Shown piece after piece: positions 17,753 through 57,216 of a stretch of 64,000 bases of DNA. A model generated the notes under the pieces. It saw only the letters and a list, made by a program, of their open reading frames with translations, had not been told where the DNA came from and did not search any database. The position numbers and the translations under genes were made by a program. The stretch is from Candidatus Gastranaerophilales bacterium (GTDB taxonomy: Bacteria > Cyanobacteriota > Vampirovibrionia > Gastranaerophilales > JANQFW01). The number at the start of each line of letters is the position of its first letter. Positions within the stretch are counted from its first letter, which is position 1. The DNA is taken from positions 12,725 through 76,724 of the forward strand of contig JANQLL010000205.1 of the NCBI GenBank assembly GCA_028280605.1, written 5' to 3'.

Positions 17753-18793
17753 TTACTTTATTGAACTAGCCAACTCTTTTGATTCATGTTGTTGGTCTAG
17801 TAAATCTAAATCTTTTTTAATCTGTTGGGCAAGTGCATAGGCTAAATTTACAGGTACAGCATTTCCTACCATTTTATACCCATCAGCAACATAATCATAT
17901 ATAAATATAAAATCATCAGGAAATGTTTGTATTCTTGCGCATTCTCGAACAGACAACCTTCTATATAAATGTTCTTTTCCTTTTGCAAAAATTCTTTTAT
18001 CTTTGTTAATAAATGTCATTTTGGGTGCTTGAGGATGAATAGGAGCATGCCGACCTCCTGCTTGAATAGTAAAAGATTGTTCATCCCAAGTCCTAACTCT
18101 ATTTCTTGACATATAGATTGTTGAATATCCACCAATAAAGTACTCATGATTTGGGATGATACAGTCATTCGCATTTGTATAATTTTTTTCCTTTGCAGGA
18201 ATAGCACTATCTTCTAAGTCTCTAATAGCATCATTTAACGTTAAACTCTTAAGGAAATTTCTAGGAAAAATAAACTTTTTTTCTAAATCTTTTCTATAAC
18301 CCACAAATATAACTCTTTTTCGATCTTGAGGAACATTATAACTTGAGGCATTTATTAACTTATAGTTTAATATATAGCCAGATTCCTGAAATAGCTTAAT
18401 AATATTATTTAAAGCTAATTCATGTCTTTTTGCAAGCATTCCAGAAACATTTTCTGCAAGAAAAAATAATGGCTTTTTATCTCTCAAAACCCTTATAAAT
18501 TCATAGAACAATTTGCCCCTCTCATCATTTATGCCTCTTAAGGCTCCTGCTTCACTCCAGCTCTGACAAGGAGGACCTCCTATAATTCCTATACATTCTG
18601 GAATGTTAACAGACAGTACAGCTCTAATACTACTTGTGTCTAAAAATGTATTAGGGAAATTGTATCTAAAAGTTTGCCAAATACTTTTATCATATTCATT
18701 TGCCCATACGGTATCAAAGCCTGCAAGCTCAAATCCTTTGTCTAATCCACCTGCACCAGAAAATAAGCTTATAATTTTATTATTCTTAAACAT
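17753..18793 (-). CDS. DNA (cytosine-5)-methyltransferase, M.HaeIII-like (predicted GGCC specificity)
   Basis: Motifs LFSGAGG, GGPPCQSWS, ENV, QDRKR and GNAVP. The variable region PNHEYFIGGYSTIYMSRNRVRTWDE...GKEHLYRRLSVRECARIQTFPDDFIF closely resembles my recollection of M.HaeIII. The start is placed at MFKNNK (ATG 18793), which overlaps the upstream stop by 8 nt. Confidence 0.9.
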   Translation of the reverse strand: MFKNNKIISLFSGAGGLDKGFELAGFDTVWANEYDKSIWQTFRYNFPNTFLDTSSIRAVLSVNIPECIGIIGGPPCQSWSEAGALRGINDERGKLFYEFIRVLRDKKPLFFLAENVSGMLAKRHELALNNIIKLFQESGYILNYKLINASSYNVPQDRKRVIFVGYRKDLEKKFIFPRNFLKSLTLNDAIRDLEDSAIPAKEKNYTNANDCIIPNHEYFIGGYSTIYMSRNRVRTWDEQSFTIQAGGRHAPIHPQAPKMTFINKDKRIFAKGKEHLYRRLSVRECARIQTFPDDFIFIYDYVADGYKMVGNAVPVNLAYALAQQIKKDLDLLDQQHESKELASSIK

Positions 18794-19628
18794 TTTTGTA
18801 CTCCATAAATTTACACTCGAGTAATTGAGCAGGATTATCAGGGTTTTTGATTTTAACATCACTTATTTTTAATGAATTTAACAGTTCAAGTGCTTTTTTA
18901 TCCTTTAATTCAAAAGAGTTAAATTTTTCAGTGCGCACTAGACAGTACAGCTTAAAACCAGAATGATATTCATCTTGTAAAAGATAGGAGAACACCTTAC
19001 TAGGGTTTTCTATGTGCCACATCCCCCTAATTCTTAAATTAGTTATACCTAAGGGATCAACTTTTTTCACCCTACCAAGCTCATTTGTTTCTGCAAATTC
19101 TACATTTTGAATACTATTTAAGCCACTTGATATTGTATTAGCAATTCTTTGGTAAATAGTTCTATTTGCTGCATAGCAATCTCCATAGACAAGCCATAAA
19201 TATTTTAATTGATTACCCTTAACAAAACCTATAGCATATATTATATCTTTTTCTCGCCAGTCTTCACATTTACGACAGTTATCAGTGATTCTTGTATCAT
19301 CAATATAAAGCTTATTTTTAGGATAAGAACTATTTAATGCTAATCCTGAAGATTTACTTTGGATTTTTTTTACTTCAATAGCATCTCCATTCTTAAGAAT
19401 GCAATCTGGGGGATTATTTTGATTGCCGATGTAAGAAAAAGCCTTTTCTATTTTTTCATTACGCTGGTATTCATTTTTTTCATTTATTGTTTCAGCGAAG
19501 GCATCTATTATATATTTTTCAAGGGCATCACCCATGTTATTTGCCCTATTTACGCCCGAATTATTGTTTTGAATTGATAATATAGGATTTTCAATAATAT
19601 TTTTTATTGCTTTTAAAAAATTGCTCAT
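18786..19628 (-). CDS. Putative type II restriction endonuclease, partner of the M.HaeIII-like methylase
   Basis: 280 aa, translationally coupled to the methylase through an 8-nt overlap. Candidate PD-(D/E)xK motif PPDCILKNGDAIEVKK. Family not verified. Confidence 0.6.
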   Translation of the reverse strand: MSNFLKAIKNIIENPILSIQNNNSGVNRANNMGDALEKYIIDAFAETINEKNEYQRNEKIEKAFSYIGNQNNPPDCILKNGDAIEVKKIQSKSSGLALNSSYPKNKLYIDDTRITDNCRKCEDWREKDIIYAIGFVKGNQLKYLWLVYGDCYAANRTIYQRIANTISSGLNSIQNVEFAETNELGRVKKVDPLGITNLRIRGMWHIENPSKVFSYLLQDEYHSGFKLYCLVRTEKFNSFELKDKKALELLNSLKISDVKIKNPDNPAQLLECKFMEYKNV

Positions 19629-19697: not shown

Positions 19698-21083
19698 TTA
19701 ATTATTAATGATCTTTAATAGGTAATTAGAATTTTTTTCAATAACCTTTTGAATAGCATCTTGAGACGGTCCACCAGGCAGATTGCGATTATTCACACAT
19801 TCTTCAAGACTGATAGCCTTATAAACAGACTTATCAAACACATCTGATATGGACTTATACTCCTCCATACTAAGTTCATCAAGTGTTTTATCATGTTTTA
19901 TACAATAAAATACAAGCTTACCTAGGATTTCATGAGCATCTCTAAACGCTACCCCTTTTTTAACAAGGTAATCAGCCGCATCAGTAGCATTAGTAAACCC
20001 GCCCTGCGCAGCCTTGTACATATTGGCTTTTTTAACACTCATGGTCTTAATCATCTGTGTAAATACAGGTAAACACATTTTAACTGTATCAACAGCGTCA
20101 AATACTGCTTCTTTATCTTCTTGCATGTCCTTATTATACGCAAGTGGAAGAGATTTCATAACCGTAAGCATTGTAATCAAATCACCATATACTCGCCCGG
20201 TTTTTCCTCTTACCAGTTCGGCTATATCAGGATTTTTCTTCTGAGGCATAATACTACTACCTGTACTATAAGCATCATCCAGCTCTATAAAGCTAAACTC
20301 AGCCGAACTCCAAAAGATAATTTCCTCGCAAAATCTGCTTAAGTGCATCATCAAGATCGATAAACAACTTAATAACTCAATAATATGATCCCTGTCAGAA
20401 ACAGCATCAATACTATTCTGAGTAATAGAGGGGAAGTCAAGTTCATCAGCAACATATTCTCTATCTAAAGGATAAGTAGTAGTTGCCAACGCTCCTGAGC
20501 CAAGGGGAAGAACATTCATACGGCTATAGCAATCATCAAGCCTGGCACGATCTCGCTTAAGCATTTCAAAATAAGCCAAAACATGATGTGCAAAAGATAT
20601 AGGCTGCGCTCGTTGCAGATGAGTATACCCGGGCAAAATAGTTTCCTTATGTTGCTTGGCAGTATCATTTAATACAACCTGCAATTCCTTTATTAGGTTA
20701 GAGATATTAATAATCTCTTCTCTAAGGTAAATCTTAATATCCAATGCAACTTGATCGTTTCTGCTGCGACCTGTATGCAGTTTTTTACCCACATCACCAA
20801 TTCTGGATATAAGCTCTTTTTCAATGTTCATATGAATATCCTCAGCTTGAACATCGAATTGAACTTTGCCGACCTCAATATCTGTAAGTATTTCTTTTAA
20901 AGTCTTTTTTATACTTTCAGCATCTTGTTTTGGTATTATACCCTGCTTACCAAGCATTCCTACGTGAGCAATACTACCGAGAATGTCTTGCTTATACATT
21001 CTTTGGTCAACATCAATAGATGAATTAAAATCATCAACCATTGAAGCAGTAGATTTACTAAAGCGACCTCCCCAGAGTTTCAT
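19698..21083 (-). CDS. argH: Argininosuccinate lyase
   Basis: [10 protein letters not shown] start, plus GRSRNDQVA and [12 protein letters not shown] signatures. Confidence 0.95.
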
Positions 21084-21101
21084 AAGCATTCATCCTTTTA
21101 A

Positions 21102-22319
21102 TTACTTAATATTATCTTTGTTAGCTTGCATCATTAATGCATTGACCTTTAACGGCAGACCAAACAGATTTATAAATCCTTCTGCATCTTTATGGTTATA
21201 CAATTCACCGGTAGTAAAACTAGCCAAGCTTTCATTATATAAAGAATACTTAGACGTTGAGCCCGCAGTAATTATATTACCCTTATATAGTTTTAGTTTT
21301 ACAGTACCTGTAACAGTTCTCTGTGTTGCATCAACAAATGCAGATAAAGCTTCTCTTAATGGTGTAAACCACTCACCGCTATATGTTAACTCTGCAAATT
21401 TAATGCCAATCATTTCTTTATAAGCGATTGTCTGCTTATCCAGACACATATGCTCAAGTTCTTCATGTGCTGCATAAAGGATAGTCCCACCCGGCGTTTC
21501 ATACACACCTCTTGACTTCATTCCGACAACTCTGTTCTCTAATAAGTCAATGGTACCAATGCCATTTTTACCACCGATTTCATTTAATTTATAAACTATC
21601 TGAGCAGGGCTTAAAGCTTCGCCATTAACTTTAACAGGAACACCCTTTTCAAATTCAAGCTCTACATAAGTTGGTTCATCCGGTGCATTTTCAGGTGTAA
21701 CAGACATCTGAAGAAGCTTATTATAATTAGGCTCATTAGAAGGATCTTCTAATTCAAGCCCTTCGTGGCTAAGATGCCATAAATTTCTGTCTCTACTGTA
21801 ACTTTCGCCTTTTTTAACAGGTACTTCTATATTTCTTTTGTTACAGAAATCAATAGCGTCTTCTCTAGATTGAATACCCCATATTCTCCAAGGTGCAATA
21901 ATCTTTAAATGCGGCGCAAGTGCTTTGATAGTTAATTCAAAACGCACCTGATCGTTACCTTTTCCGGTAGCACCGTGACAAATTGCTTCTGCACCTTCTT
22001 TTAAAGCAACATCAACTAATTTCTTAGCGATTAAAGGTCGAGCAATAGACGTACCAAGCAAATATTTACCTTCATATACAGCACCAGCTTTTAACATTGA
22101 CCATACGTAGTCAGAAGTAAACTCTTCATCCACTTCTTCAAGGTAGTATTTACAAGCACCAGTTGAAAGAGCTTTTTGCTCCAAACCTTCAGTCTCTTTA
22201 CCCTGACCAACGTCAACACATACAGCGATTACCTCATAATCATAGTTTTCTTTTAACCAGGGTATAATAACTGTAGTGTCTAATCCGCCGGAATAAGCTA
22301 ATACCACTTTTTTCTTCAT
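21102..22319 (-). CDS. argG: Argininosuccinate synthase
   Basis: [10 protein letters not shown] and [13 protein letters not shown] motifs. Confidence 0.95.
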
Positions 22320-22498
22320 TTATATAATCCTTCCTTCTAGAGATTTCTTGCCATTTATATATTACAGAATACTAGCAATATAGTTTAATTATCAATAGTT
22401 TAATTTAATTTTTTCGTAAAATACACGATTTAGTTTAGATATTCACTTTATTATAAAGACTTATACCTTTATTTAAAGTTTATTAACATATTTTTATT

Positions 22499-25400
22499 TT
22501 ATTTTTTTATTTTTAATAAACTTTTATTAATATAAAAATCAATAGTTTCGTAGGTTAAATCCGAATTATCCTTTAAAGACTTAAGCGCTACAAGATAAGC
22601 ATTAATAGTATCCAATGATGTAAAGCCGGGTATCTTGTATTGCTCAGCAATTGCCCTAATTTTAAAGCCGCTGCGCTTTGGATTCTTACCTAAAGTCGGT
22701 ATATTAAGACTCATAGTAATCTCACCTGCCTTGATCTTTTGCTCTATCAACTGTGAGTCATGACGATCAATAAGCTCAACATCAAGCCCTTTTTGCTGAT
22801 AGAATTCACCAGTATGCTTTGTAGCTATTACTTTAAATCCAAGATCAATAAACTCTTTTATTGTATTTAAAGATTCTTCCCTAGCCTCAGGTTTTAAAGA
22901 TACAAGCAAGCAGCCACTTTGAGGAAATGCAAATCCTGCTCCCTTAAATGCTTTAATTAAAGCCCTATCATAAGTATTGTCAACACCAAGCACTTCACCG
23001 GTAGACTTCATTTCAGGCGTTAAAGCAACATCAACATCATTAAGTTTTTGAAATGAAAATACAGGAGCTTTAACAGCTACTAAATTACTTGAAGGCTTTA
23101 ATCCGGTACCATAGCCTAAATCTTCTAGATTTTCACCTAAAATAGCTTTAATAGCAAGATCAACCATAGGCACTTTGGTAACTTTACTAAGTATTGGCAC
23201 AGTACGAGAGGCTCTAGGATTAACCTCTATTACATAAACCTCTTCATCCTTTACAACAAACTGAATATTCATGAGGCCGATAACCTGTAAAGCCTTTGCC
23301 AGCTTAGCAGTATAGTCAACTAAGGTATCTAAAACCTTTTGAGATATTGTTTGAGTCGGATATGCACAGAAGCTATCACCAGAGTGAACACCAGTTCTTT
23401 CAATATGCTCCATAATTCCAGGTATTAAAATATCATTCCTGTCAGAAATTGCATCTACTTCAACTTCTTTACCTTCAATATACTGGTCAATAAGAATAGG
23501 ATGACCAGATGAAAGCGAAGCTGCTTCTTTTAGATAAGATTTTAATCCATTTTCATCATAAACAACCTGCATTGCTCTACCACCTATAACATAAGAAGGC
23601 CTTACCAGTACAGGGAATCCAATATTTCTGGCAGTAGCTATAGCATCTCTTAAATTATTTACAGCTGCACCTTTTGGTTGCTTAATATTTAATTCTCTTA
23701 ATAATCTTTCAAATCTTTTTCTATCTTCCGCAACATCAATAGATTCAACAGATGTACCAAGTATCTGAACACCTCTTTTTAAAAGCTTTGGCGCAAGATT
23801 AATCGCTGTTTGCCCACCAAATTGAACAATTACCCCTTGCGGCGTTTCTTTTCTTATTACATTATAAACATCTTCTATATACAAAGGCTCAAAGTATAAC
23901 TTATCTGCCGTATCAAAATCAGTACTAACAGTTTCAGGATTATTATTTATGATAATTGATTCATATCCAGCATTTTGAATACCCCAGGCTGCATGAACAG
24001 AACAATAGTCAAACTCAATCCCTTGCCCGATTCTTATTGGACCAGAGCCGATTACTATTATCTTTTTATTTTTAGTTATTTCATTTTCATCTTCTGTCTC
24101 AAAAGTTGAATAATAATAAGGAGTTGCAGACTCAAATTCAGCAGCACAGGTATCTACCATTTTATAAACAGGGTACAAATTATGCGCTCTTCTAAGGGTG
24201 TCAAGGGTTTCCATTGACTCACCCGACAAATCAACAATCTCAGGATCAGTAAAACCACTCGACTCTGCCTTATGAAGAAGCTCAACAGTTAATTCTTCTG
24301 CCTCTAAACGATTTTCTATATTTACTATATTACCGATTTTATTGATAAACCAAGGGTCTATTTTAGTAATATCAAATATTTCTTCGGTAGAAATCCCTTT
24401 TCTTAAAGCTTCGGCCACTACAAAAACTCTTTTGTCATCACAGATATGAAGCTTATCAAGAACTTCATCCTGAGAAAGCATTTCCAACTTAGGACTTCTT
24501 AACCCATTTCCTTTCCCTTCAAGAGATATTACAGCTTTTAAGAATGAACTTTCAAAAGTTCTATCAATTGCCATTACCTCGCCTGTAGCTTTCATCTGGG
24601 TTCCTAGTTTTCTATTAGCATAAGAAAACTTATCAAAAGGCCATTTAGGAATTTTTGTTACTACATAATCAAGCGCAGGCTCAAATGATGCCATTGTTTT
24701 TTTTGTTACATAGTTTGGAATTTCGTGTAAATTCATACCAATAGCTATTTTAGCAGCAATTTTAGCAATAGGATAACCAGCTGCCTTTGATGCTAACGCC
24801 GAAGACCTACTAACCCTAGGGTTAACTTCAATCACCAAATACTCCATACTTTCAGGATTAAGTGCATATTGAACATTACACCCGCCTTCGATCTCTAATG
24901 CTCTTATTATCTTAATAGCAGAAGTTCTTAACATATGGTATTCTTCATCTCTCAATGTTTGAGAAGGAGCAACAACTATACTATCTCCGGTATGAACCCC
25001 AACAGGATCAAGATTTTCCATATTACAAACAACTATACAGGTATCATTAGAGTCTCTCATTACCTCATATTCAATCTCTTTCCAGCCAGCAACGCTTTGT
25101 TCCAACAATACTTGATTAATTCGACTATGCAATAAACCTTTATGTAGTATGTCTTTTAATTCTTCATCATTATGAGCAATACCACCGCCTGTACCACCAA
25201 GAGTATAAGCTGGCCTAATAATCACAGGAAAACCTATTTCTTTAACAAAAGCCTCTCCCTCTTCTAGATTACAAACGATTTGACTTTTAGGCACAGGCTC
25301 TTTTATTTCCTTCATTAAGTCCTTAAAGCTCTCTCTATCCTCAGCTTTTTTGATAGTGTCAAGTGATGTACCTAGTAGCTTTACGTTATATTTATCTAAA

Positions 25401-25720
25401 ACTCCTGCTTCTTGAAGCTCAACAGCAATATTAAGACCGGTTTGCCCACCTAGCGTAGGTAATAATCCATCAGGACGTTCTTTATCTATAATATAAGACA
25501 AAGCCTCAATATTTAAGGGCTGTATATATACCCTATCAGCCATATTATCATCCGTCATAATAGTTGCAGGGTTACTATTTACTAGCACTACTTCTATATT
25601 TTCTTCTTTTAGTGATTTACACGCCTGAGTACCGGCATAATCAAACTCTGCAGCCTGCCCAATTATAATAGGTCCCGAGCCAACAACCAAAACCTTTTTA
25701 ACTTCTTTATTTACCGGCAT
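22499..25720 (-). CDS. carB: Carbamoyl-phosphate synthase large subunit
   Basis: 1073 aa with duplicated ATP-grasp halves and an MGS-like C-terminus. Confidence 0.95.
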   Translation of the reverse strand: MPVNKEVKKVLVVGSGPIIIGQAAEFDYAGTQACKSLKEENIEVVLVNSNPATIMTDDNMADRVYIQPLNIEALSYIIDKERPDGLLPTLGGQTGLNIAVELQEAGVLDKYNVKLLGTSLDTIKKAEDRESFKDLMKEIKEPVPKSQIVCNLEEGEAFVKEIGFPVIIRPAYTLGGTGGGIAHNDEELKDILHKGLLHSRINQVLLEQSVAGWKEIEYEVMRDSNDTCIVVCNMENLDPVGVHTGDSIVVAPSQTLRDEEYHMLRTSAIKIIRALEIEGGCNVQYALNPESMEYLVIEVNPRVSRSSALASKAAGYPIAKIAAKIAIGMNLHEIPNYVTKKTMASFEPALDYVVTKIPKWPFDKFSYANRKLGTQMKATGEVMAIDRTFESSFLKAVISLEGKGNGLRSPKLEMLSQDEVLDKLHICDDKRVFVVAEALRKGISTEEIFDITKIDPWFINKIGNIVNIENRLEAEELTVELLHKAESSGFTDPEIVDLSGESMETLDTLRRAHNLYPVYKMVDTCAAEFESATPYYYSTFETEDENEITKNKKIIVIGSGPIRIGQGIEFDYCSVHAAWGIQNAGYESIIINNNPETVSTDFDTADKLYFEPLYIEDVYNVIRKETPQGVIVQFGGQTAINLAPKLLKRGVQILGTSVESIDVAEDRKRFERLLRELNIKQPKGAAVNNLRDAIATARNIGFPVLVRPSYVIGGRAMQVVYDENGLKSYLKEAASLSSGHPILIDQYIEGKEVEVDAISDRNDILIPGIMEHIERTGVHSGDSFCAYPTQTISQKVLDTLVDYTAKLAKALQVIGLMNIQFVVKDEEVYVIEVNPRASRTVPILSKVTKVPMVDLAIKAILGENLEDLGYGTGLKPSSNLVAVKAPVFSFQKLNDVDVALTPEMKSTGEVLGVDNTYDRALIKAFKGAGFAFPQSGCLLVSLKPEAREESLNTIKEFIDLGFKVIATKHTGEFYQQKGLDVELIDRHDSQLIEQKIKAGEITMSLNIPTLGKNPKRSGFKIRAIAEQYKIPGFTSLDTINAYLVALKSLKDNSDLTYETIDFYINKSLLKIKK

Positions 25721-25721
25721 T

Positions 25722-26786
25722 TTACTTTCCCCCTCCTATTGACTCTACCCACTCTTTAAATAAATAACTTGCATCTTCAGGTCCTGGCCCAGCTTCTGGA
25801 TGAAATTGTACAGAATGAATATTTAAATCAGGACAACTATAACCCTCTATAGTATTGTCATTTACATTAACATGTGTAACTTGAATGTTATCAGGCAAAC
25901 CTTTATCAGATACCGCATAACCATGATTTTGTGATGTCATAGTTACTCTATTATTTCTTTTATCAATAACAGGGTGGTTACTACCCCTATGACCGAATTT
26001 AAGTTTATAAGTATCTGCACCAAGTGCAAGAGAAACTATCTGATGGCCTAAACAAATACAAAATATTGGCAATTTCCCGATTAAATTACCGGCAGTGGCA
26101 ACAGCTTCTTGCACATCCTTAGGATCTCCCGGACCGTTAGAGAATAAAATTGCATCCAGTTTATCATTTAATATTGCTTTAGCAGATGTATTCCACGGAT
26201 ATATATGGATTTCGCAGCCCAATTGTTTTAAATATTTAATAATATACGACTTTACACCAAAATCTAAAATACCCACCTTTTTACCGGGCGCAGGGATGAT
26301 TTCCTTTTGCTTACGCGAAACATTGGCCACAACATCAACAGGAAATTTGTATTTATCAAGCTTATCCATTAGCTCATCAGTTATTTCTTCTGTTGTAACA
26401 ATACAATTCATAGTACCTTGCTTGCGGATCTTCTTTGTTAACATTCTAGTGTCAACATCTGCAATGGCAAAAATATCATTATCTTTTAAGTAATCAGAAA
26501 GATTTCCGGTACTTTTCCAATTACTTTCCATTTCACAGTATTCTTTTACTACAAATCCGTTTACTTTTATTGATTCAGATTGTACATCATCTAGATTCAC
26601 GCCGTAATTACCAATTAACGGATAAGTCATTACAACAACCTGTCCAGCATAGGATGGATCCGTAAGAACTTCTTGATACCCAGTCATGCCAGTATTAAAT
26701 ACAATTTCGCCCATCACTGTCTTTTGCGCACCAAATGACGTGCCTTCTATTGTTGTTCCATCTTCCAATAATATATACGCTTTCAT
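25722..26786 (-). CDS. carA: Carbamoyl-phosphate synthase small (glutaminase) subunit
   Basis: GICLGHQ-type catalytic Cys (FCICLGHQ) and SQNHGY motifs. Its stop abuts the carB start. Confidence 0.95.
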   Translation of the reverse strand: MKAYILLEDGTTIEGTSFGAQKTVMGEIVFNTGMTGYQEVLTDPSYAGQVVVMTYPLIGNYGVNLDDVQSESIKVNGFVVKEYCEMESNWKSTGNLSDYLKDNDIFAIADVDTRMLTKKIRKQGTMNCIVTTEEITDELMDKLDKYKFPVDVVANVSRKQKEIIPAPGKKVGILDFGVKSYIIKYLKQLGCEIHIYPWNTSAKAILNDKLDAILFSNGPGDPKDVQEAVATAGNLIGKLPIFCICLGHQIVSLALGADTYKLKFGHRGSNHPVIDKRNNRVTMTSQNHGYAVSDKGLPDNIQVTHVNVNDNTIEGYSCPDLNIHSVQFHPEAGPGPEDASYLFKEWVESIGGGK

Positions 26787-26796
26787 GCCATATCTC

Positions 26797-27978
26797 CTAT
26801 AAAGTTTCTTTTAATATCGCAATTGCCTTATCAACTTCTTCTTTATTAATTATTAAAGGCGGTACAAACCTTATAACATTTGACCCAGCCCCTACTAATA
26901 AAAGACCATTATTTAAACATTCCAAAACAACATCAGCAGCTGGCTTATCAATCTCTATACCCTGCATAAGCCCAACACCTCTAATATCTTTTATACATTT
27001 TTTTTCTTTTTTTAGGTTTTGCAAGCATTCGCTTAAGTATTCACCTATTTCCCAGGTACTTTTTAATATATTTTTATTTAAAAGAAAATCTAATACCGTA
27101 AGCCCCGCCGAACAAGCTAAAGCATTACCGCCAAATGTACTTGCATGATCTCCTGGCTGAAAAGCCTGAGCCACATTTTCTATCGCAAGAATTGCGCCAA
27201 TTGGACAACCTCCACCTAAGCCCTTTGCTAAAGCAATAACATCAGGCGCAACATCATAATATTCATAAGCAAACAAATATCCTGTTCTGCCCATTCCGCA
27301 TTGTATCTCGTCATAAGCAAGAACTATATTGTTTTCATCACAAATTTTTCTTACTTCTTGTAAATATTCTTTTGATACAGGTCTTATACCACCTTCACCC
27401 TGTATTGGCTCTAAAATTATCACACATGTATTACCAGTTACTTGCTCTTTTAAAGATTCTATATCATTAAATTCAGCATATTTTATGCCAGGTAGAAGCG
27501 GTGTTAAACCTTCTTGGTATTTATCTTGTCCTGTTGCTGTGATAGCCCCATAGGTTCTACCGTGGAAAGATTGCTTGATAGTAATAATTTCAAAACAGTC
27601 ATCCCCTTTATATTTTTTACCGTATTTTCTACATAATTTTAAAATCCCCTCAATTGCTTCCGCTCCGCTGTTACAGAAAAATACCTTGTCAAAAATACTA
27701 TTTTCAACAAGGCACTTAGCTAATTCTATTTGAGGTTTATTCCAATATAAGTTTGAAATATGGATTAATTTCCCGATTTGGTCCGTCAGGCTTGAAATAA
27801 AATCCTTATTATTATAACCAAGTGTATTAACAGCAATACCAGATACAAAATCAAGGTATTTTTTACCATTTGTATCAGTGACATAGCAGCCATCTGCGCT
27901 TTCTATTGTAATAGGAAAGCGCTTATATGTATTCATTACGTATTTATCACCAAGTTCAAGCCAATTTTGCTCAGACAT
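26797..27978 (-). CDS. argD: Acetylornithine aminotransferase
   Basis: Class III aminotransferase motifs (SGAEA, DEIQCGMGRTG, LAKGLGGG) in arg operon context. Confidence 0.9.
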   Translation of the reverse strand: MSEQNWLELGDKYVMNTYKRFPITIESADGCYVTDTNGKKYLDFVSGIAVNTLGYNNKDFISSLTDQIGKLIHISNLYWNKPQIELAKCLVENSIFDKVFFCNSGAEAIEGILKLCRKYGKKYKGDDCFEIITIKQSFHGRTYGAITATGQDKYQEGLTPLLPGIKYAEFNDIESLKEQVTGNTCVIILEPIQGEGGIRPVSKEYLQEVRKICDENNIVLAYDEIQCGMGRTGYLFAYEYYDVAPDVIALAKGLGGGCPIGAILAIENVAQAFQPGDHASTFGGNALACSAGLTVLDFLLNKNILKSTWEIGEYLSECLQNLKKEKKCIKDIRGVGLMQGIEIDKPAADVVLECLNNGLLLVGAGSNVIRFVPPLIINKEEVDKAIAILKETL

Positions 27979-27987
27979 TTTCTACCT

Positions 27988-28869
27988 CTACTTCTCTATT
28001 TGGGTTCCAATTCCCTTATGAGTAAATATCTCTAATAACAAGCTGTGTTCAACTCTACCATCTAAGATATGAACGGTTTTTACACCAGCTTCAACACCAG
28101 AAACACAACACTCTACCTTAGGTATCATCCCACCTGATATGATTTTTTGCTCAATATAACTCGCCACTTCTTTGATAGTCATCCTTGATATTAAAGACTC
28201 GCTATCATTTACATCTTTTAAAACACCTGGAACATCTGTAAGATATACAAGCTTATTAGCATTTAAAGCACCGGCAATTGCACTTGCAGCATAATCAGCA
28301 TTTATATTATAGCCATTACCGCTACAGTCTTTACCCACAGGTGCTATTACCGGAATAAAATCATTGTCGATTAGTGCCTTTATCAAGTCAGTATTTACTT
28401 TTTCTACTTCACCTATCTGCCCTGCATCTTTACCATTGATATACTTCTTTTTTGCAGTTAAAATATTGCCGTCTTTACCGCTTACGCCTACAGCATTCAC
28501 CCCTAACACCTGCAAATTTGAAACAATATCTTTATTTACCTTGCCAGAAAGAACCATTTCAACAACTTCCATTGTTTTAGCATCAGTAATTCTTAATCCG
28601 TCAACAAATTCGGGTTCCTTACCTATTTCATGCAACATATTATTAATACTAGGACCACCCCCGTGTACAATAACAGGATATATACCAACTCTTTTTAATA
28701 ACACAATATCTTGAAAGACCTTTTGTTTTAATCGCTCATCAAGCATTGCACTGCCACCATACTTAATAACAAAAATATTTCCCGAAAATTCTTTGATATA
28801 AGGTAATGCCTCTATAAGCACATTAGCCTTTTCAATATATTTTTGCATTGTATTATTAATCACTTCCAT
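27988..28869 (-). CDS. argB: Acetylglutamate kinase
   Basis: VIKYGGSAM, VHGGGP and NINAD motifs. Confidence 0.95.
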   Translation of the reverse strand: MEVINNTMQKYIEKANVLIEALPYIKEFSGNIFVIKYGGSAMLDERLKQKVFQDIVLLKRVGIYPVIVHGGGPSINNMLHEIGKEPEFVDGLRITDAKTMEVVEMVLSGKVNKDIVSNLQVLGVNAVGVSGKDGNILTAKKKYINGKDAGQIGEVEKVNTDLIKALIDNDFIPVIAPVGKDCSGNGYNINADYAASAIAGALNANKLVYLTDVPGVLKDVNDSESLISRMTIKEVASYIEQKIISGGMIPKVECCVSGVEAGVKTVHILDGRVEHSLLLEIFTHKGIGTQIEK

Positions 28870-28881
28870 TATTTTGCTCCC

Positions 28882-30102
28882 TTATGACCTATATTCGCCA
28901 TTTATTTTTACGTATTCATAACTTAAATCACAACCCCAAGCTTTGGTCTCAGCTGTACCTTGATTTAAATCGATTTGTGCTTTTATTTCTTTTTCTTCTA
29001 ATATTTCTAAAGCTCTATCTTCATTAAATTCAATAGGCTTACCATTATCAACAAGTGTTATCTCACCGGCATTACTTTTAAATAAAACATTAATCTTATC
29101 AAAATCAAATTTAACACCAGAGTAGCCCATTGCTGCTACAATCCTGCCCCAGTTTGCATCCTCACCAAAAAACGCAGTTTTCACAAGGCTAGAGTTAATA
29201 ACAGCTTTACACATTTTCTTGGCATCTTCTTTAGAATTTGCTGAACGCACGTGTATTTCAATAAACTTAGTTGCACCCTCGCCATCTTTGATGATTTGCT
29301 TGGCTAGATACCTGTTGATTTTATCAAGTGCCTGCTTGAACATATCATACTCTGTAGAATCAGGCATAATTTCAGGAATATCAGTCTTACCGTTAGCTAA
29401 CAGTACAACCATATCATTTGTACTCGTATCCCCATCAACAGAAATCATATTATAACTGTCATCAACACTTTCTTTAAGCATTTTTTGCAATAAACTAGAG
29501 CCAATATTGGCATCTGTAAATAAAAAAGAAAGCATAGTCGCCATATTAGGATGAATCATTCCAGAACCTTTTGCTTGCCCAACTATTTTAACAGGCTTAT
29601 CAAATAGTTCAAGTTCAATAGTAATCTGTTTAGTAAATGTATCAGTAGTTAAAATACCTTCTGCTGCATCGTTAAAAGCCTCTTCTCTATTATCCAGGGC
29701 TGGTATATTATCTTGAATACCTTTAGAAATCAAGTTAATAGGTAAAACCTGACCAATAATACCCGTTGAGGCAACAAAAACTTCTTCTTTATTTAAATTA
29801 AGACAGCCTGCAAGGTCTTGTGCCATTTGCTGTGCGTGGACTTTACCTATCTCTCCGGTGCAAGCATTAGCATTGCCACTGTTAATAACTATTGCACGTA
29901 TTTTATTACCACTATCAAGGATTTTTTTATTCCACAATAAAGGTGCTGCTTTTAATGCATTTCTGGTGAATACTGCCGCTGCATTGCAATCATATTTGCT
30001 ATAATAGATAGTTAAATCTTTTCTTTTTCTCTTTATCCCTATATGGCTACCCACTGCATAAAATCCATTCGGGGCGATGACTTTTCCTTCTGTGACTTTC
30101 AT
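28882..30102 (-). CDS. argJ: Bifunctional ornithine acetyltransferase / N-acetylglutamate synthase
   Basis: 406 aa. The ATMLSFLFTD autoprocessing region and the arg operon context fit ArgJ. Confidence 0.9.
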   Translation of the reverse strand: MKVTEGKVIAPNGFYAVGSHIGIKRKRKDLTIYYSKYDCNAAAVFTRNALKAAPLLWNKKILDSGNKIRAIVINSGNANACTGEIGKVHAQQMAQDLAGCLNLNKEEVFVASTGIIGQVLPINLISKGIQDNIPALDNREEAFNDAAEGILTTDTFTKQITIELELFDKPVKIVGQAKGSGMIHPNMATMLSFLFTDANIGSSLLQKMLKESVDDSYNMISVDGDTSTNDMVVLLANGKTDIPEIMPDSTEYDMFKQALDKINRYLAKQIIKDGEGATKFIEIHVRSANSKEDAKKMCKAVINSSLVKTAFFGEDANWGRIVAAMGYSGVKFDFDKINVLFKSNAGEITLVDNGKPIEFNEDRALEILEEKEIKAQIDLNQGTAETKAWGCDLSYEYVKINGEYRS

Positions 30103-30126
30103 TATTCCCTCCTTGGTAAAACCCGA

Positions 30127-31170
30127 TCAAGCAGGAAATATTGGCACCTGCGATAAGCCCAATTTTTCGTCAAGGGCAAACATAATATTCATATTTTGTA
30201 CAGCTTGACCGGCTGCACCTTTTACCAGGTTATCAATACATCCTATAACAATAATTCTACCGGTTCGCTCATCTATAGTGAAACCAATATCAAAGAAGTT
30301 AGAACCTTTTACCCATCTTGTTTCTGGATATACTCCTTCTTTTGCTATCCTTACAAAGTATTCGTCGGCGTAGTATTTATTATAGACACCTAAGATATCA
30401 TTATAACTAAGGTTCTCGTTTAATGTAGCATAGCTGGTTGCAAGAATACCCCTGTTCATCGGTATTAGATGAGGTGTAAATATTAAACTGATATCTTCGC
30501 CAGCTGCTATAGATAATTCTTGTTCAATTTCTGGGGTGTGCCTATGCGATGCTATTTTATAAGCTTTAAATGACTCATTGCACTCTGTGTAATGGGTACT
30601 AACATTTAATGATCTGCCTGCACCACTTACCCCTGATTTAGCATCTATTATAATACTGTTTTTACACATCAAATCTTCTTTTAATAAAGGATACAAACTT
30701 AAAATACTACAGGTGGTATAGCATCCGGGATTAGCAATAAGCTGTGCATTTTTTATATCTTCTCTTTTAAGCTCACTCAGGCCATATACTGCTTGCTCTA
30801 ATAAATCAGGGCTGCAATGATCGGTTTGATACCATTGTTCATAGGTTTCTTTACAACATAACCTGTAATCTGCGCCCAGGTCTATAACTTTGACCTTATC
30901 TAATATATCTTTACTAAGCTTTTTTGATGCAAGTCCGTGCGGCAGCGCCAAAAATATTATATCAAGCTCTTTTGCCATTTTTTCAAGGTTTTCTTCTTCA
31001 CAAGCAGCATCAAATAGCCCGCTGAAGTTACTGTATATATTACTATAACTTTGTCCTGCATAACTTTTTGATGTAATAGCCTTTATTTCTACCTCAGGAT
31101 GTTGCACTAAAATCCTGGCAAGTTCTTCACCTATGTAACCTGTTACTCCTACTATTCCGGCTTTTATCAT
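30127..31170 (-). CDS. argC: N-acetyl-gamma-glutamyl-phosphate reductase
   Basis: GVTGYIGEEL NAD-binding motif and the active-site region NPGCYTT. GGAGG SD 9 nt upstream. Confidence 0.95.
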   Translation of the reverse strand: MIKAGIVGVTGYIGEELARILVQHPEVEIKAITSKSYAGQSYSNIYSNFSGLFDAACEEENLEKMAKELDIIFLALPHGLASKKLSKDILDKVKVIDLGADYRLCCKETYEQWYQTDHCSPDLLEQAVYGLSELKREDIKNAQLIANPGCYTTCSILSLYPLLKEDLMCKNSIIIDAKSGVSGAGRSLNVSTHYTECNESFKAYKIASHRHTPEIEQELSIAAGEDISLIFTPHLIPMNRGILATSYATLNENLSYNDILGVYNKYYADEYFVRIAKEGVYPETRWVKGSNFFDIGFTIDERTGRIIVIGCIDNLVKGAAGQAVQNMNIMFALDEKLGLSQVPIFPA

Positions 31171-31212
31171 CGCATTTAACCTCCAGCGTACTATTTCTAA
31201 CTCTCTTTATCC

Positions 31213-31252
31213 ATAAAAAAACCTCCTATATCACTACAGGAGGTTTTTTAAG
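31213..31252 (-). terminator. Leader terminator (attenuator hairpin) 45-80 nt upstream of the argC start
   Basis: The minus strand reads AACCUCCUGUA-GUGA-UAUAGGAGGUU followed by UUUUUAU. This is a roughly 11-bp stem (one G.U pair) with a GNRA tetraloop and a U tract. Confidence 0.75.
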
Positions 31253-31293
31253 TCTATTTATCAATTATACCAAAAGAAAACAGCATTAAACTT

Positions 31294-31359
31294 TTAACAA
31301 TCCTCCTGAAGAAGCATTGTACGGCGTCGTGACCTGTTTTCATTTCTGGTTAATTTCAT
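31294..31359 (-). CDS. Candidate arginine leader peptide MKLTRNENRSRRRTMLLQEDC (21 aa)
   Basis: ATG at 31359..31357 and TAA at 31296..31294. Five of 21 codons are Arg, including the consecutive run CGA CGC CGT. Its 3' end (CAGGAGGAUUGUUAA) can pair with the 5' arm of the terminator. Confidence 0.55.
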   Translation of the reverse strand: MKLTRNENRSRRRTMLLQEDC

Positions 31360-31399
31360 TTTAATTTTACCTAAGATTTGCTTTAACTAAATTAAGTAT

Positions 31400-31428
31400 A
31401 TTCTATGTAAGACATAATAAAATATCAA
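31400..31428 (-). promoter_or_regulatory. Sigma-70-type promoter for the arg leader/operon
   Basis: TTGATA (31428..31423), a 17-nt spacer, then TAGAAT (31405..31400) on the minus strand, about 40 nt upstream of the leader ATG. Confidence 0.6.
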
Positions 31429-31454
31429 GTGGCAGTTAAAATTTCACTAAAAAA

Positions 31455-31500
31455 ATAGCAACGATAAATTCCCCTTTGCCAAGCAAAAGTCTATCATTGC
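31455..31500 (-). terminator. Intrinsic terminator of the upstream hypothetical gene
   Basis: The minus strand reads GCAAUGAUA...(inner hairpin UUUGC-uug-GCAAA)...UAUCGUUGC followed by UAUUUUUUU. Confidence 0.6.
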
Positions 31501-31533: not shown

Positions 31534-33132
31534 CTAATAATGCGGCTTTTTCTTATTTAATTCTTCTTTTTTATTGCTGTTTATATCTATTATATTAATA
31601 TTTTTTTCATTATTTTCATCATTAAAAATATCTTCTTTTATAGTGCTTTCTTTTTTATCATTTTCTAAAATATCAGTATCGCCTGCTAAAGCAGCATCGG
31701 CCACCTTCGCAACTGCGGATGTTTCTTTGTAAGACTTTGAATTCAAGAGCTTTGAGATGACTTTAACCAGTTTATACGTCCCCTGTTTAACTTTTTTCAA
31801 ATTTTTTTGCGCCTTTTCTTCCAATTTACGCTGGTGCGCTTCTTTCCTTGCCTCCTCGCAGCATTCTGCAACAAATTTATTACGCTCTACAGCCATTAGT
31901 TTGCGTGATTTGCGACGTTGGGCATTAATTACCCTTTGCTCATAGCCGCGATTTTTGTAATCTCTGTAATACTCAAAGTGCTCATTATACCTTTGCTCCT
32001 CCTGTTCAGGGGTTACCGCTTCATCTTCCCATGTTTCATAACTAAAATACTTTATTTCGTCTTCCTGGTATGGATCATAATATTTGTCTCGTGCCAAAGC
32101 AAGATAATCATCTTTATAGCAGATGTTATGCTTTACTTTATCAAGTCTAAATTGAGACTGACGCACACAGCGAATTTTATAGAGGAGTTCTTTATGTGCA
32201 TCTATTATTCTAATCAGAGGGTGATCAGAGAATCCCTCTTGATAACGAGGATAGGGCACATCATTGGATTCTGAATTTGAGCAATCTTTTGGTATTGGCA
32301 GGTGCAGGATTTCTTTTACATTGCTGTAGCTTACCTGATCAGGAACATTATCCGTAAATAAATCTTGATTAAAGTGTATTTGTTTTAATTCTGAGAGAAT
32401 TTTTTTGCTTATATTTGTCAATTTTTTGAATAAGTGAATATCTTCGGGACTTCCTTCGGATAAGTCATACTCATTGATTGACCAGGGCCTTAGCACTACA
32501 AACTCTGTTGGGAGTTCTAAATTTAAGCGTGCCATTTTTTCCATCATTAACGGCAATAATCTTGAAAATTTATGGCAATCATCGAATTTATCTCTTATTA
32601 TATCGATTTCTTCAAGTATTTTTTGGTTTAGCTGGTTCAGGCTGTTAACTGCATGAATCTGTTGTGTAGAAAATTTAGCCCTTATTTCATCGGGTATTTT
32701 TGTACTTACCAATGAATATGTTTTCTTTGCAAGGTTTATTAAGCCTTCTGAGTTTGTTTTAAAACTTGGGCTATCAGATTTTGGCTTCCTTGCATGCCAT
32801 TTCTTTGCGGCTCTTCTTTTTTCTACGCTTTCTATTATATTCATTGCAAAAGATTGAAGACCCATGTTAATAAATTCCATTTTTTGAATAAGAAATTTAC
32901 TCCAATTGCCCGTGCGCATTATGTGCATGTACTCTTTGCCAACAATGTCAAATTTCATTTCTGAAGTTTTTATAGATTCAAGTAAGCGGTCTTTATAGCC
33001 CATTAGGTCACAATTCCGGGCAAAACGGCGTAATAGGACAATTTTGTTTCTCAATCTGTAATACAGGATTGATGCGTATTTATCGTTATCCTTTCGGCAT
33101 GTGTCTTCAGTTTTTGCAACTTCTTTACTCAA
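31534..33132 (-). CDS. Hypothetical protein (532 aa, K/E-rich C-terminus)
   Basis: Long uninterrupted ORF. No motifs I recognise. Confidence 0.6.
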   Translation of the reverse strand: MSKEVAKTEDTCRKDNDKYASILYYRLRNKIVLLRRFARNCDLMGYKDRLLESIKTSEMKFDIVGKEYMHIMRTGNWSKFLIQKMEFINMGLQSFAMNIIESVEKRRAAKKWHARKPKSDSPSFKTNSEGLINLAKKTYSLVSTKIPDEIRAKFSTQQIHAVNSLNQLNQKILEEIDIIRDKFDDCHKFSRLLPLMMEKMARLNLELPTEFVVLRPWSINEYDLSEGSPEDIHLFKKLTNISKKILSELKQIHFNQDLFTDNVPDQVSYSNVKEILHLPIPKDCSNSESNDVPYPRYQEGFSDHPLIRIIDAHKELLYKIRCVRQSQFRLDKVKHNICYKDDYLALARDKYYDPYQEDEIKYFSYETWEDEAVTPEQEEQRYNEHFEYYRDYKNRGYEQRVINAQRRKSRKLMAVERNKFVAECCEEARKEAHQRKLEEKAQKNLKKVKQGTYKLVKVISKLLNSKSYKETSAVAKVADAALAGDTDILENDKKESTIKEDIFNDENNEKNINIIDINSNKKEELNKKKPHY

Positions 33133-39754: not shown

Positions 39755-41836
39755 CTAGGAAACTGAACATTTACCGATGATTTCTTCAGCAATGTTGTTA
39801 GGAACAGGTTCGTATTTGGAGAACTCCATACTGAATGTTCCACGACCTTGAGTTTTACTACGTATATCAGTAGCATAACCGAACATTTCAGAAAGAGGAA
39901 CGAGAGCGGTAACTTTTTGAATATTTGTACCTTCAATCATTTCCATACCTTCTACACGGCCTCTTCTACCAGAAAGGTCGCCTATTACATCACCGAGGTA
40001 CTCATCAGGTACTTCGATTTCTACTTTCATCATTGGCTCTAAAATTGTAGGATCAGCTTTTTTAACACCGTCTTTAATAGCCATACTTCCTGCAACTTTA
40101 AACGCCATTTCACTACTATCTACATCGTGGTAACTTCCATCGTATAGAGTAGCTTTAACATCGATAACTTCGTAACCTGCGATGATACCGCCGGCAAGAG
40201 CTTCTTCAATACCTTTTTGTACTGCAGGAATGTATTCTCTAGGAACAACACCACCAACGATTTTGTTCTCGAATACAAATCCGCCGCCCTCACCAAGAGG
40301 CTCAACTTTAAGTTTAACGTGACCGTACTGACCACGACCACCGGATTGTCTTACGAATTTACCTTCTACATCAACTTCTTTATTGATGGTTTCTCTGTAA
40401 GCAACCTGAGGTTTACCTACGTTCGCACCAACTTTAAATTCTCTTAATAATCTGTCTACAATAATTTCCAAGTGAAGTTCGCCCATACCTGAAATAATTG
40501 TTTGACCAGTTTCCTGATCAATTTTTACTTTAAAGGAAGGATCTTCATCAGCTAGCTTGCTTAGACCTACTGTTAATTTATCTTGGTCGGCTTTTGTTTT
40601 TGGCTCGATCGCTACAGATATTACAGGCTCTGGGAATTCGATAGATTCTAATATTACAGGATGAGCTTCATCTGTAAGAGAATCACCTGTTGTAGCTTCT
40701 TTTAAACCAACAATAGCAGCTAAGTCACCTGCTGAAATTTCAGGCACTTCGGTTCTGGAATCAGCTTGCATTTGAACTATACGACTGATTCTTTCCTTTT
40801 TACCGGTTGTTGCGTTTAATACATAACTACCGGCTTTTAGAACACCACTGTACACCCTGATGAAAGTTAATCTACCAACATAAGGGTCTGTCATGATTTT
40901 AAATGCTAGTGCTGCAAAAGGTTCGTCAGGTGAACTTTTTCTTTCTGCTTCAACACCGGTTTTGTCGATACCTTTAATAGCAGGAACATCAATTGGAGCC
41001 GGCATATAGTCAATTACAGCATCTAACAATAACTGTACACCTTTGTTCTTAAATGCAGAACCACAGGTTACAGGTATAACTTTATTTTGAATGGTTGCGA
41101 TTCTAATACCTTTCATGAGTTCATCTTCAGAAATTTCTTCACCTTCAAGGTATTTCATCATTAATTCATCATCAACTTCAGATACAGCTTCAACTAAAGC
41201 TTCTCTGTATTCTTTTGCCAGCTCTTTGTATTCAGCAGGAATTTCTGTTTCTTCAATATCAGTACCTATATCATTTTTATAGATATAAGCTTTTTGTCTT
41301 ACTAAATCAATAATACCGGATAACTGATCTTCTGCTCCTATTGGTAATTGAATAGGATGAGCATTACCTTGTAATCTGGTTTTGATTTGATCAACAACTC
41401 TTAAGAAGTTAGCTCCGGTTCTATCCATTTTATTAACAAATACCATTCTTGGGACTTGATATCTGTTAGACTGTCTCCATACTGTTTCAGACTGTGATTG
41501 AACACCGCCTACTGCACAGAATACAGCAACAACACCATCTAGTACACGTAAAGATCTTTCAACTTCAATAGTAAAGTCAACGTGACCCGGTGTATCGATG
41601 ATGTTTACTTGGTGATCTTTCCAGAAGCTTGTTACAGCTGCTGAAGTAATAGTAATACCGCGTTCTCTTTCTTGATCCATAAAGTCAGTTACAGAAGTGC
41701 CTTCATGTACTTCACCAATTTTATGGCTAACGCCTGTATAATATAAGATTCTTTCTGTTGTAGTCGTTTTGCCTGCGTCAATGTGTGCCGCAATGCCTAT
41801 ATTTCTAATTTTACTTAATGGAGTCTTTTTAGCCAC
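39755..41836 (-). CDS. fusA: Elongation factor G
   Basis: [27 protein letters not shown] and NKMDR motifs; 693 aa. Confidence 0.97.
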
Positions 41837-55535: not shown

Positions 55536-55784
55536 TAATTCTCTCCTCTTTTCTTCTCTCTCTTAATTATGTCTCTCTTTTAAATTTATCTATCAGTAAA
55601 AATATTCACAAAAATAATCTTCTCTAAATAATTCATTATTAATGTTCTTGCTAAATTATTTGATTTAATTATTTTTTTTAAAACTTCTCTCTCTAAGGTG
55701 AAAAATCTGCATAATTATACTTTATAATAAAAGCATTCTATCTCTGGTTATACTAAACGTTCTAATATTCTCAATTTAATCTCT

Positions 55785-55825
55785 TATAAATATATAAAAA
55801 CAATAAATCATAAAAAATTGCTATA
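55785..55825 (-). promoter_or_regulatory. Paralog-array upstream motif, copy 2 (upstream of P1)
   Basis: tataaatatataaaaacaataaatcataaaaaattgctata. Confidence 0.55.
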
Positions 55826-55864
55826 TATTTTTAAATCTGGTAAATAAGTATGATTAACAAAAAA

Positions 55865-55903
55865 ACTTAGAAAGATAAGCCCTCCTCGTTTTGCGGAGGG
55901 CCT
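55865..55903 (-). terminator. Terminator of P2
   Basis: GCCCTCC-tcgttttgc-GGAGGGC hairpin, with a U-rich tail on the minus strand. Confidence 0.65.
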
Positions 55904-55926
55904 TATATATAAACTAAGCAAGAAAT

Positions 55927-57045: not shown

Positions 57046-57123
57046 TAGAACTCTCCTCTTCGTCTCTTCTTTCCCGTGCTTGGGCTTATATTTCTATATT
57101 CATTTCTCTATAATTTTTTTCAA

Positions 57124-57168
57124 CTGGCCTATTTATATAAAAACAATGTAGTATATAAAATTGCTATA
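57124..57168 (-). promoter_or_regulatory. Paralog-array upstream motif, copy 3 (upstream of P2)
   Basis: ctggcctatttatataaaaacaatgtagtatataaaattgctata. Its distal end is part of a perfect 28-bp palindrome at 57161..57188. Confidence 0.55.
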
Positions 57169-57216
57169 AAAAATATTTTTTATAGCAATAAACAAATAAA
57201 TTCTAATTAAAATCTT

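Follow-up and report, generated by a model that had tools for sequence, protein, structure and literature searches.

A probable arginine-codon leader-peptide attenuator upstream of the argCJBD-carAB-argGH operon of a Gastranaerophilales bacterium

A stretch of 64,000 nucleotides (nt) from a Candidatus Gastranaerophilales bacterium (contig JANQLL010000205.1, positions 12,725 to 76,724; the whole stretch is termed here the window) carries an arginine biosynthesis operon, argC-argJ-argB-argD-carA-carB-argG-argH (19698..31170, minus strand). The leader region 5' of argC probably acts as a transcription attenuator of the classical ribosome-mediated (leader-peptide) type, sensing how much charged tRNA-Arg is available, as judged by sequence comparison and RNA folding models. 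Such an attenuator had been proposed in a first-pass annotation made from the DNA letters and a list of open reading frames (ORFs). Each element described there is confirmed in the sequence, the gene assignments are upheld by NCBIfam equivalog models (E 1e-81 to 0), and equivalent leaders are present at nine related argC loci.

The leader ORF has 21 codons and a stop, MKLTRNENRSRRRTMLLQEDC, and runs from an ATG at 31359..31357 to a TAA at 31296..31294 (minus strand, as are all leader coordinates below). As first described, five of the 21 codons specify Arg: an AGA (31347..31345), an AGG (31335..31333) and the run CGA CGC CGT (31329..31321), which represents codons 11-13 and is the proposed stall site. 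How unusual is such a run? The window is 32.6% GC, Arg makes up 3.3% of the codons in its long ORFs, and among the Arg codons of its genes CGN accounts for 25.5% and AGA alone for 59%. CGH-CGH-CGH (H is A, C or T) occurs at two sites in the 64 kb, both strands counted, against 0.32 expected. The second site (30362..30370) is inside argC and out of frame, and the leader run is the window's only in-frame triple. At least three Arg in four codons are found in 3 of the 2,314 small ORFs of the window; two of these are inside long genes, and the leader is the sole intergenic one. A screen of the whole window for codon runs followed by terminators was informative for Arg only, the terminator criterion being too permissive in AT-rich DNA.

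A predicted sigma-70-type promoter, TTGATA (31428..31423) and TAGAAT (31405..31400) with a 17-nt spacer, is present as originally annotated and matches 10 of 12 consensus positions; the leader ATG is 40 nt past the -10 box. A scan of the leader region found promoter-like sites no commoner than in shuffles, and a consensus match alone is weak evidence. Of the closest relatives described below, L082 has an identical TTGATA-N17-TAGAAT and L081 conserves the -35 block. The upstream gene ends in a terminator of its own (hairpin and U tract, about 31500..31449, -20.5 kcal/mol), which makes the leader a separate transcription unit. A palindrome, TATGTCTTACATA, is found at 31404..31416 (minus strand), where it overlaps the spacer and -10 box; it is absent as a conserved feature in L081 and L082, thus it is probably no operator.

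The leader closes with an intrinsic terminator, a 15-bp stem (31249..31235/31230..31216) with a GUGA loop and a U7 tract to 31215, whose strength (-18.8 kcal/mol) bears out the first description. It ends 44 nt 5' of the argC ATG at 31170, which has a Shine-Dalgarno (SD) sequence GGAGG (31184..31180) at 9-nt spacing. The final 15 nt of the ORF, stop codon included (region 2, the antiterminator 5' strand, CAGGAGGAUUGUUAA, 31308..31294), can pair with the terminator 5' arm (region 3, the antiterminator 3' strand, UUAAAAAACCUCCUG, 31251..31237). A base-by-base check reproduces the 13 of 15 pairs counted earlier; the duplex has -13.3 kcal/mol compared with -5.2 +/- 1.9 in shuffles, and 0 of 500 shuffles are as good. 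An anti-antiterminator hairpin, 1:2, consisting of ACAAUGCUUC-UUCA-GGAGGAUUGU (31320..31311/31306..31297), begins on the nucleotide right after the last CGN codon and sequesters the antiterminator strand. A 20-bp outer stem (31355..31334/31283..31263) encloses most of the ORF and is predicted when the leader is untranslated. The whole-leader minimum free energy fold is -55 kcal/mol (z = -4.55 vs shuffles).

The first-pass annotation had called for a comparison of two alternative structures. Alternative structures are indeed seen on folding, but hairpin 1:2 and the outer stem had been missed. The antiterminator is mutually exclusive with the terminator, and hairpin 1:2 is mutually exclusive with the antiterminator. 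The predicted layout is the full three-hairpin scheme of a classical attenuator (1:2, 2:3, 3:4), and this fits better than the two-structure scheme proposed at first.

How might the leader work? We infer a transcription start, translation of the ORF, ribosome-polymerase coupling, a stall and a response to arginine, in the following order. Transcription would start about 35 nt 5' of the leader ORF, near 31393, and a ribosome would load on the ORF and trail RNA polymerase. With arginine plentiful, the ribosome would read CGA CGC CGT through to the UAA and cover region 2 (GGAGGAUUGU-UAA); region 3 would then be free to pair with region 4, and the 15-bp terminator would halt polymerase at about 31215. 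With Arg-tRNA scarce, the ribosome would stall at codons 11-13 and its footprint would cover region 1 (ACAAUGCUUC), such that region 2 is released and pairs with region 3 once this is made; no terminator would form and argCJBD-carAB-argGH would be transcribed. If there is no translation, hairpin 1:2 and the outer stem are expected to form, and the terminator too, which would make the default state off.

Is the arrangement found elsewhere? A lack of conservation of the ORF or its Arg codons in relatives had been named beforehand as a refutation, and the comparison speaks in favour of the attenuator. Relatives were obtained from an ArgC scan of species-representative genomes and metagenomes, and from contigs that encode the closest ArgC proteins. 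Nine argC loci carry a leader ORF, an in-frame CGH cluster, a terminator and a strand complementary to it. Together with the window there are ten leaders, in three sub-families (A, B and C), with ArgC identities of 54-92% among the leader-bearing loci.

Sub-family A includes the window and two relatives (ArgC 81-83% identical to that of the window): L081, with the peptide MKLTGNENRTRRCTIILQEDC and the cluster CGA CGC TGC, and L082, with MILTKNENRSRCRSIVLQEDC and CGA TGC CGT; the frame, start and stop of the leader ORF are conserved in both. Sub-family B (ArgC 54-60%) consists of L044, from a Gastranaerophilales metagenome-assembled genome (MAG), with MTNLKQVNFIRRRLIRQESY and CGC CGA CGC, and L091, with MILNKKERTLRRRLIRLESY and CGC CGC CGC. 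In sub-family C (ArgC 67-69%) the cluster CGA CGC AAC CGC is shared by L163 (MNNISLQNQILNNRRNRYVTNQVAYELASLFVIE), L164/L165 (MNNSLLKNQILNNRRNRYMTCQVAYELASLFVIE) and L166, another Gastranaerophilales MAG (MNNILLKNQKSNNRRNRCITRQVAYELASLFVIE), these with ..NNRRNR.., and by L171 (MNIFSKNNILNNRRNRYMTQQEAYWLASLFIV); L172 (..NNRRTR.., MKKINEKLNNRRTRNILKRRLFPV) has CGT CGT ACC CGA.

An in-frame cluster of CGA, CGC or CGT is thus found at codons 11-17 in all ten leaders, never with CGG or AGR; in the relatives, each cluster has 2-3 CGH codons over a span of 3-4 positions. Outside the cluster, peptides are not conserved between sub-families. Synonymous changes are found at the Arg positions, both in sub-family C (CGA CGC AAC CGC in most members vs CGT CGT ACC CGA in L172) and in sub-family B (CGC CGA CGC in L044 vs CGC CGC CGC in L091). 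Arg identity kept through synonymous changes, with other residues unconserved, is the signature expected if the codons matter, and not the peptide or a fixed RNA motif. In bacteria CGA, CGC and CGU are all read by one inosine-containing tRNA, tRNA-Arg(ICG). Because these codons are used exclusively, in genomes that prefer AGA, tRNA-Arg(ICG) is probably the isoacceptor that is sensed.

The structural elements are also retained. Terminator energies, computed for the window and seven of the relatives, range from -15.4 to -23.6 kcal/mol, and in all ten leaders the stretch just 3' of the Arg cluster is complementary to the terminator 5' arm. The complementary pairs differ between sub-families: AGGAGGAUU/AACCUCCU, GGAGUCUUA/UAAGCCUCC, CAGGUGGCUUAU/AUAGGUCUCCUG, CAGGAGGCUU/AAGUCUCCUG and AAGGAGGCUU/AAGUCUUCUU. 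The 2:3 duplex is better than shuffles in nine of ten leaders (p <= 0.036), with p = 0.10 in L081. Shuffles were used in place of a cross-family duplex matrix, which was uninformative for own versus foreign pairing because a GGAG/CUCC core is common to all families. Hairpin 1:2 is kept, with register shifts, in L081 and L082, and L044 and L091 have an analogous 9-10 bp hairpin in the same place within the ORF. Across the three sub-family A sequences the outer stem is 90% paired, with one double-sided change; for the terminator stem the figure is 100% in A1, with one double-sided change and three single-sided ones. In L081 (1080..1289) the terminator ends 218 nt before argC, compared with 43-51 nt in the window and L082, and about 170 nt of extra sequence are inserted.

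The geometry was assessed with a ribosome-footprint model. Each leader was folded up to the terminator loop, i.e. before region 4 exists, and partition functions were computed with the RNA masked as far as 12 nt past the A-site codon's first base, including everything behind the ribosome. The score is the summed probability that the terminator 5' arm pairs with upstream sequence. In the window the arm is sequestered at 0.86 with a ribosome stalled on the first CGN codon and at 0.80 on the last, and at 0.05 with a ribosome at the stop codon and 0.14 without a ribosome. Stalls on CGN codons give 0.66-0.98 in all ten leaders. A ribosome at the stop codon gives 0.01-0.18 in nine of ten, L172 being at 0.54, and the absence of a ribosome gives 0.00-0.20 in sub-families A (except L081) and B. 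In this in-silico model the direction of switching is that of the first-pass annotation, in ten of ten leaders for the stall and nine of ten for the stop codon. With only 28 nt masked, the terminator arm of L081 and L082 paired with the SD region of the leader itself and the values were flat; masking all RNA behind the ribosome resolved this.

How widely is the leader distributed? In a uniform screen of 162 argC upstream regions (at least three Arg in four codons, then a terminator-like hairpin), the only matches are AT-rich Melainabacteria-type loci and one GC-rich Armatimonadota match that is probably due to chance. The feature is absent from the approximately 150 non-Melainabacteria argC loci of this screen, and most Firmicutes relatives are without a leader. 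Two candidates, L061 (Lachnospiraceae, with MARTRRRGSLISDKDRHRVHSVIK 5' of argC) and L077 (Armatimonadota), were rejected as chance occurrences; both are GC-rich, with no convincing terminator/antiterminator design.

Several points weigh against an arginine attenuator, or at least complicate it. The transcription start is predicted from a consensus match only, and the SD of the window leader is weak, an AGGU (31372..31369) 9 nt 5' of the leader ATG; AGG/GGA-type motifs precede the leader ATG in nine of nine relatives. An extended -10-like sequence, TGGTATAAT, lies inside the leader at 31272..31264 (minus strand), within the 3' strand of the outer stem. L081 conserves it, and L082 has TGGTTAAAT there; transcripts from this internal site would carry the terminator and not the antiterminator strand. 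The closest relatives each have one CGN codon turned to TGC (RRC in L081, RCR in L082), thus either three in a row are not essential, or regulation is weakened or the elements are decaying. The CGACGC bases of sub-family C also form pairs with a GCGUC downstream of them, and part of their conservation could therefore be structural. Covariation in sub-family A is not significant, as there are three close sequences and 109 of 500 shuffles are as good.

The folding models themselves add two points. Untranslated leaders of sub-family C and L081 are predicted to be largely antiterminated (0.57-0.97), unlike the trp scheme. When the full transcript is folded at equilibrium with a ribosome footprint, the terminator wins in every state, so the decision must be kinetic and co-transcriptional, as it is for trp; transcripts ending at the terminator loop were used in place of full-leader equilibrium folds. 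Lastly, the Melainabacteria-type loci L167 (ACD20), L168-170 and L177 have no leader. Two leaderless loci nest with sub-family C at 71-76% ArgC identity, which points to repeated gain or loss of the element.

Might the leader be a switch of another kind, with the ORF incidental? In an RNA-only or protein-dependent attenuator, a ligand or protein would bind the conserved CG-rich segment and thereby control the choice between terminator and antiterminator. The strong structure of the leader (the z-score given above), its 20-bp outer stem and a conserved internal loop with CACGACGCCGU are in keeping with this, as is the pairing of the CGACGC bases in sub-family C; moreover, nucleotide conservation in sub-family A is so high that coding and structural constraints are inseparable there. 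However, no sequence or fold is common to the three sub-families other than an SD-like motif and an ORF that starts with ATG and has the CGH cluster in frame. The synonymous Arg changes that set L172 apart from the rest of sub-family C, and L044 from L091, also argue against a fixed RNA motif, as do the lack of an Rfam match and a cluster-to-region-1 distance that fits the ribosome footprint in ten of ten leaders. This alternative is considered unlikely.

A promoter, an ORF and a strong terminator also constitute a self-contained unit, which raises the question of an independent small gene, or small RNA, that has a terminator of its own, or of a constitutive partial terminator that damps or insulates argC, the Arg-rich peptide having no sensing role. 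The L081 terminator, distant as it is from argC, could be taken in this sense, and in other bacteria attenuator leader transcripts act in trans, as the available text on rnTrpL/peTrpL describes (PMC7968998). But the unit lies directly 5' of argC and in the same orientation at all ten loci, its peptide is unconserved between sub-families except for the Arg cluster, and the conserved complementarity between the 3' part of the ORF and the terminator 5' arm would be purposeless in a plain terminator. The small-gene or plain-terminator explanation is thus quite improbable.

Could the peptide itself be the sensor? If the nascent chain arrested the ribosome in response to free arginine, as with fungal AAP, TnaC and SpeFL, high arginine would hold the ribosome on region 2, at the stop codon or close to it, and favour the terminator, which is the right sign of regulation. 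The C-termini in sub-families A and B are similar (LQEDC*, RQESY*, LESY*), but this can be attributed to the need for CAGGAG/GGAG bases in pairing, and those of sub-family C differ (LASLFVIE*, LFPV*). Across sub-families it is the codon cluster that is conserved, and no peptide motif; peptide arrest is very doubtful. That a short ORF, a CG-rich patch and a terminator came together by chance in AT-rich intergenic DNA can be all but set aside: small ORFs (2,314) and terminator-like hairpins (about 500 in a crude screen) abound in the window and the promoter scan is not enriched over shuffles, but the same combination is found at nine other loci that span 54-92% ArgC identity and is missing from some 150 others, the CGH triple is rarer than one per window by expectation (0.32), and the duplex betters 500 of 500 shuffles. 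All these rivals are weakened by the same observation. In the sequences compared, the three leader families are otherwise dissimilar and have just one thing in common: Arg codons that are clustered in frame, vary synonymously and lie at footprint distance from the switch helices.

The leader of the window resembles the trpL, hisL, leuL, thrL, pheL and ilvL/ivbL leaders of proteobacteria, as well as leader peptides of Actinobacteria and Firmicutes, in having a short promoter-proximal ORF in which codons for the amino acid of its own pathway are clustered. Also shared with the classical leader-peptide attenuators are hairpins 1:2, 2:3 and 3:4, a stop codon so placed that a terminating ribosome covers region 2, and an intrinsic terminator that closely precedes the first structural gene. 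The leuL leader uses rare CUA codons, and the cluster in the window leader likewise belongs to a minority codon family. The differences from the classical attenuators are the amino acid, arginine, the host, Melainabacteria/Vampirovibrionia, the lack of sequence or covariance-model resemblance to any Rfam leader family, the extra 20-bp outer stem and the predicted antitermination of untranslated sub-family C leaders. The proposed mechanism is of a known kind; what appear to be new are the arginine specificity and the lineage of the host.

Rfam and literature searches, with journal coverage incomplete, agree with the statement of the first-pass annotation that the known leader-peptide set does not include arginine. 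No Rfam family is found at the gathering threshold in the window or the nine related loci. The best sub-threshold matches in the window, Phe_leader (21.5 bits, threshold 55) and SpF11 (26.8, threshold 54), cover the terminator only; as these matches are terminator-driven, the element is not a catalogued family. Full-text searches, with subscription journals mostly outside their coverage, found no Arg-codon leader-peptide attenuator of an arginine biosynthetic operon. Arginine is listed as T-box regulated at the RNA level by Seliverstov et al. 2005 (PMC1262725) and is not mentioned by Naville and Gautheret 2010 (PMC2965389); recent surveys add new Cys, Ala and Met leader peptides and none for Arg (PMC8632094, PMC8079986).

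The nearest Arg-codon sensor is orf34 of the Salmonella speF leader (Ben-Zvi et al. 2019, PMC6386406). According to the available text of that report, orf34 has two consecutive Arg codons, and the progress of the ribosome reports arginine and selects the mRNA structure; as in the window, a short upstream ORF with Arg codons chooses between alternative mRNA structures. In contrast to the window, the target is ornithine decarboxylase, and the control described in that text works through Rho protection, unmasking of the speF ribosome-binding site and RNase G sensitivity, with no intrinsic terminator/antiterminator. The orf34 leader is also enterobacterial and unrelated in sequence.

Fungal AAP, encoded by the arg-2/CPA1 upstream ORF, offers a more distant parallel, as an upstream ORF couples an enzyme of the arginine pathway (carbamoyl-phosphate synthetase) to arginine. 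There a conserved nascent peptide stalls the ribosome on free arginine and blocks scanning. Unlike the window leader, this is eukaryotic translational control through the nascent peptide, without an Arg-codon cluster or a terminator.

Repression by ArgR/AhrC is the textbook control of arginine biosynthesis. It acts on the same genes and in response to the same signal as proposed for the leader, arginine sufficiency being repressive, but by means of a DNA-binding protein that acts at ARG boxes in the promoter. No ArgR-like protein was found among the scanned ORFs of the 64-kb window. In the 91 nt 5' of the leader ATG the best site for an ARG box (about TGMATWWWWATKCA) has 4 mismatches in 14. 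A scan of this kind has little power to discriminate in AT-rich DNA: a site with 1 mismatch turns up in L171, and sites with 0-3 mismatches in leaderless controls. ArgR control and a leader attenuator could coexist. At L177 (GCA_031546905.1, 1146..1500; ArgC 66% identical to that of the window) the divergent argG <> argCJB intergenic region has no leader ORF and carries two similar TTAATATTATT[C/G][A/C]ATA motifs, which could be ARG-box-like operators. Leaderless relatives may use ARG-box-like motifs instead of the leader; such motifs were seen in L177 only.

Among RNA-level controls of arginine biosynthesis, T-box leaders alone were found reported in the literature searches, with the incomplete coverage noted above. 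Arg-specific T-boxes (RF00230) are similar to the window leader in that tRNA charging controls a terminator before arginine genes. They differ in binding uncharged tRNA directly, with no need of translation, and the window has no Stem I, specifier loop or T-box sequence. Even at E <= 10 the window gives no match to the T-box model. The positive control, L084 (metagenome contig LFRM01375165.1), has a T-box leader at 454..642 (plus strand; 89.6 bits, gathering threshold 93, E = 1.8e-20) directly 5' of an argC homologue (62% identity), a different tRNA-sensing device in the same position.

A broader proposal is more tentative, namely that this leader family may be the main, perhaps only, arginine sensor for arginine biosynthesis in one branch of the Vampirovibrionia, and that it specifically monitors the charging of the single inosine-containing tRNA-Arg that reads CGA/CGC/CGU. 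If so, arginine would join the leader-peptide set, and tight transcription-translation coupling would serve amino-acid control in a sister lineage of Cyanobacteria. An arginine leader-peptide attenuator would close a gap in the classical set and offer a first handle on how the uncultured Melainabacteria regulate their amino-acid metabolism; it would also imply ribosomes that closely trail RNA polymerase in these organisms. Do attenuators choose the codons of the isoacceptor that is most sensitive to starvation? A cluster limited to CGA, CGC and CGT in AGA-preferring genomes constitutes a natural test. In addition, the element, at about 215 nt, is self-contained and possibly reusable as an arginine-responsive part.

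The host is placed by its protein relationships. The best named relatives of its EF-G (39755..41836) are 76-83% identical and come from Candidatus Gastranaerophilales, Candidatus Melainabacteria and Vampirovibrionales MAGs; named ArgC relatives belong to the Gastranaerophilales, Melainabacteria and Vampirovibrionales groups, together with Clostridia/Firmicutes entries of similar identity. On this evidence the host is an uncultured member of the Melainabacteria/Vampirovibrionia, the non-photosynthetic sister lineage of the Cyanobacteria. In another member, L032 (Ca. Gastranaerophilales MAG BRZ_DS__bin68; 100..330, plus strand), the gene order is argG-argH-argC. A promoter-like TTGACG..TATAAT is found 5' of argG, and past it a GC-rich, near-perfect inverted repeat of 47 nt (192..238, tagattttcaggcgggggcagcttcgccgcccccgcctgaaaatcta) that lacks a U tract; neither an Arg-codon ORF nor an Rfam family is present upstream of this argG.

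The regions that flank the operon have features of their own. The gene upstream of the leader (31534..33132, minus strand) is a 532-aa ORF with no Pfam match at 1e-05 and no NCBIfam match. Directly 3' of argH there are an NgoPII-type restriction endonuclease and a C5 cytosine methylase, and a gene for a tyrosine recombinase of the phage-integrase family is found near them (17753..19628 and 14214..15224 for the group, both minus strand); this may be a mobile restriction-modification island. Six consecutive ORFs of 245-436 aa (54225..63626, minus strand) have no Pfam match at 1e-12. Two of these, at about 60041 and 57367, have a near-identical internal stretch in common (..STDSLGLIQTAADKNKKLMMFGSKMLN and ..NTDSLDLIQTAADKNKKLMMFGSKMLN, respectively), thus they are probably paralogues.

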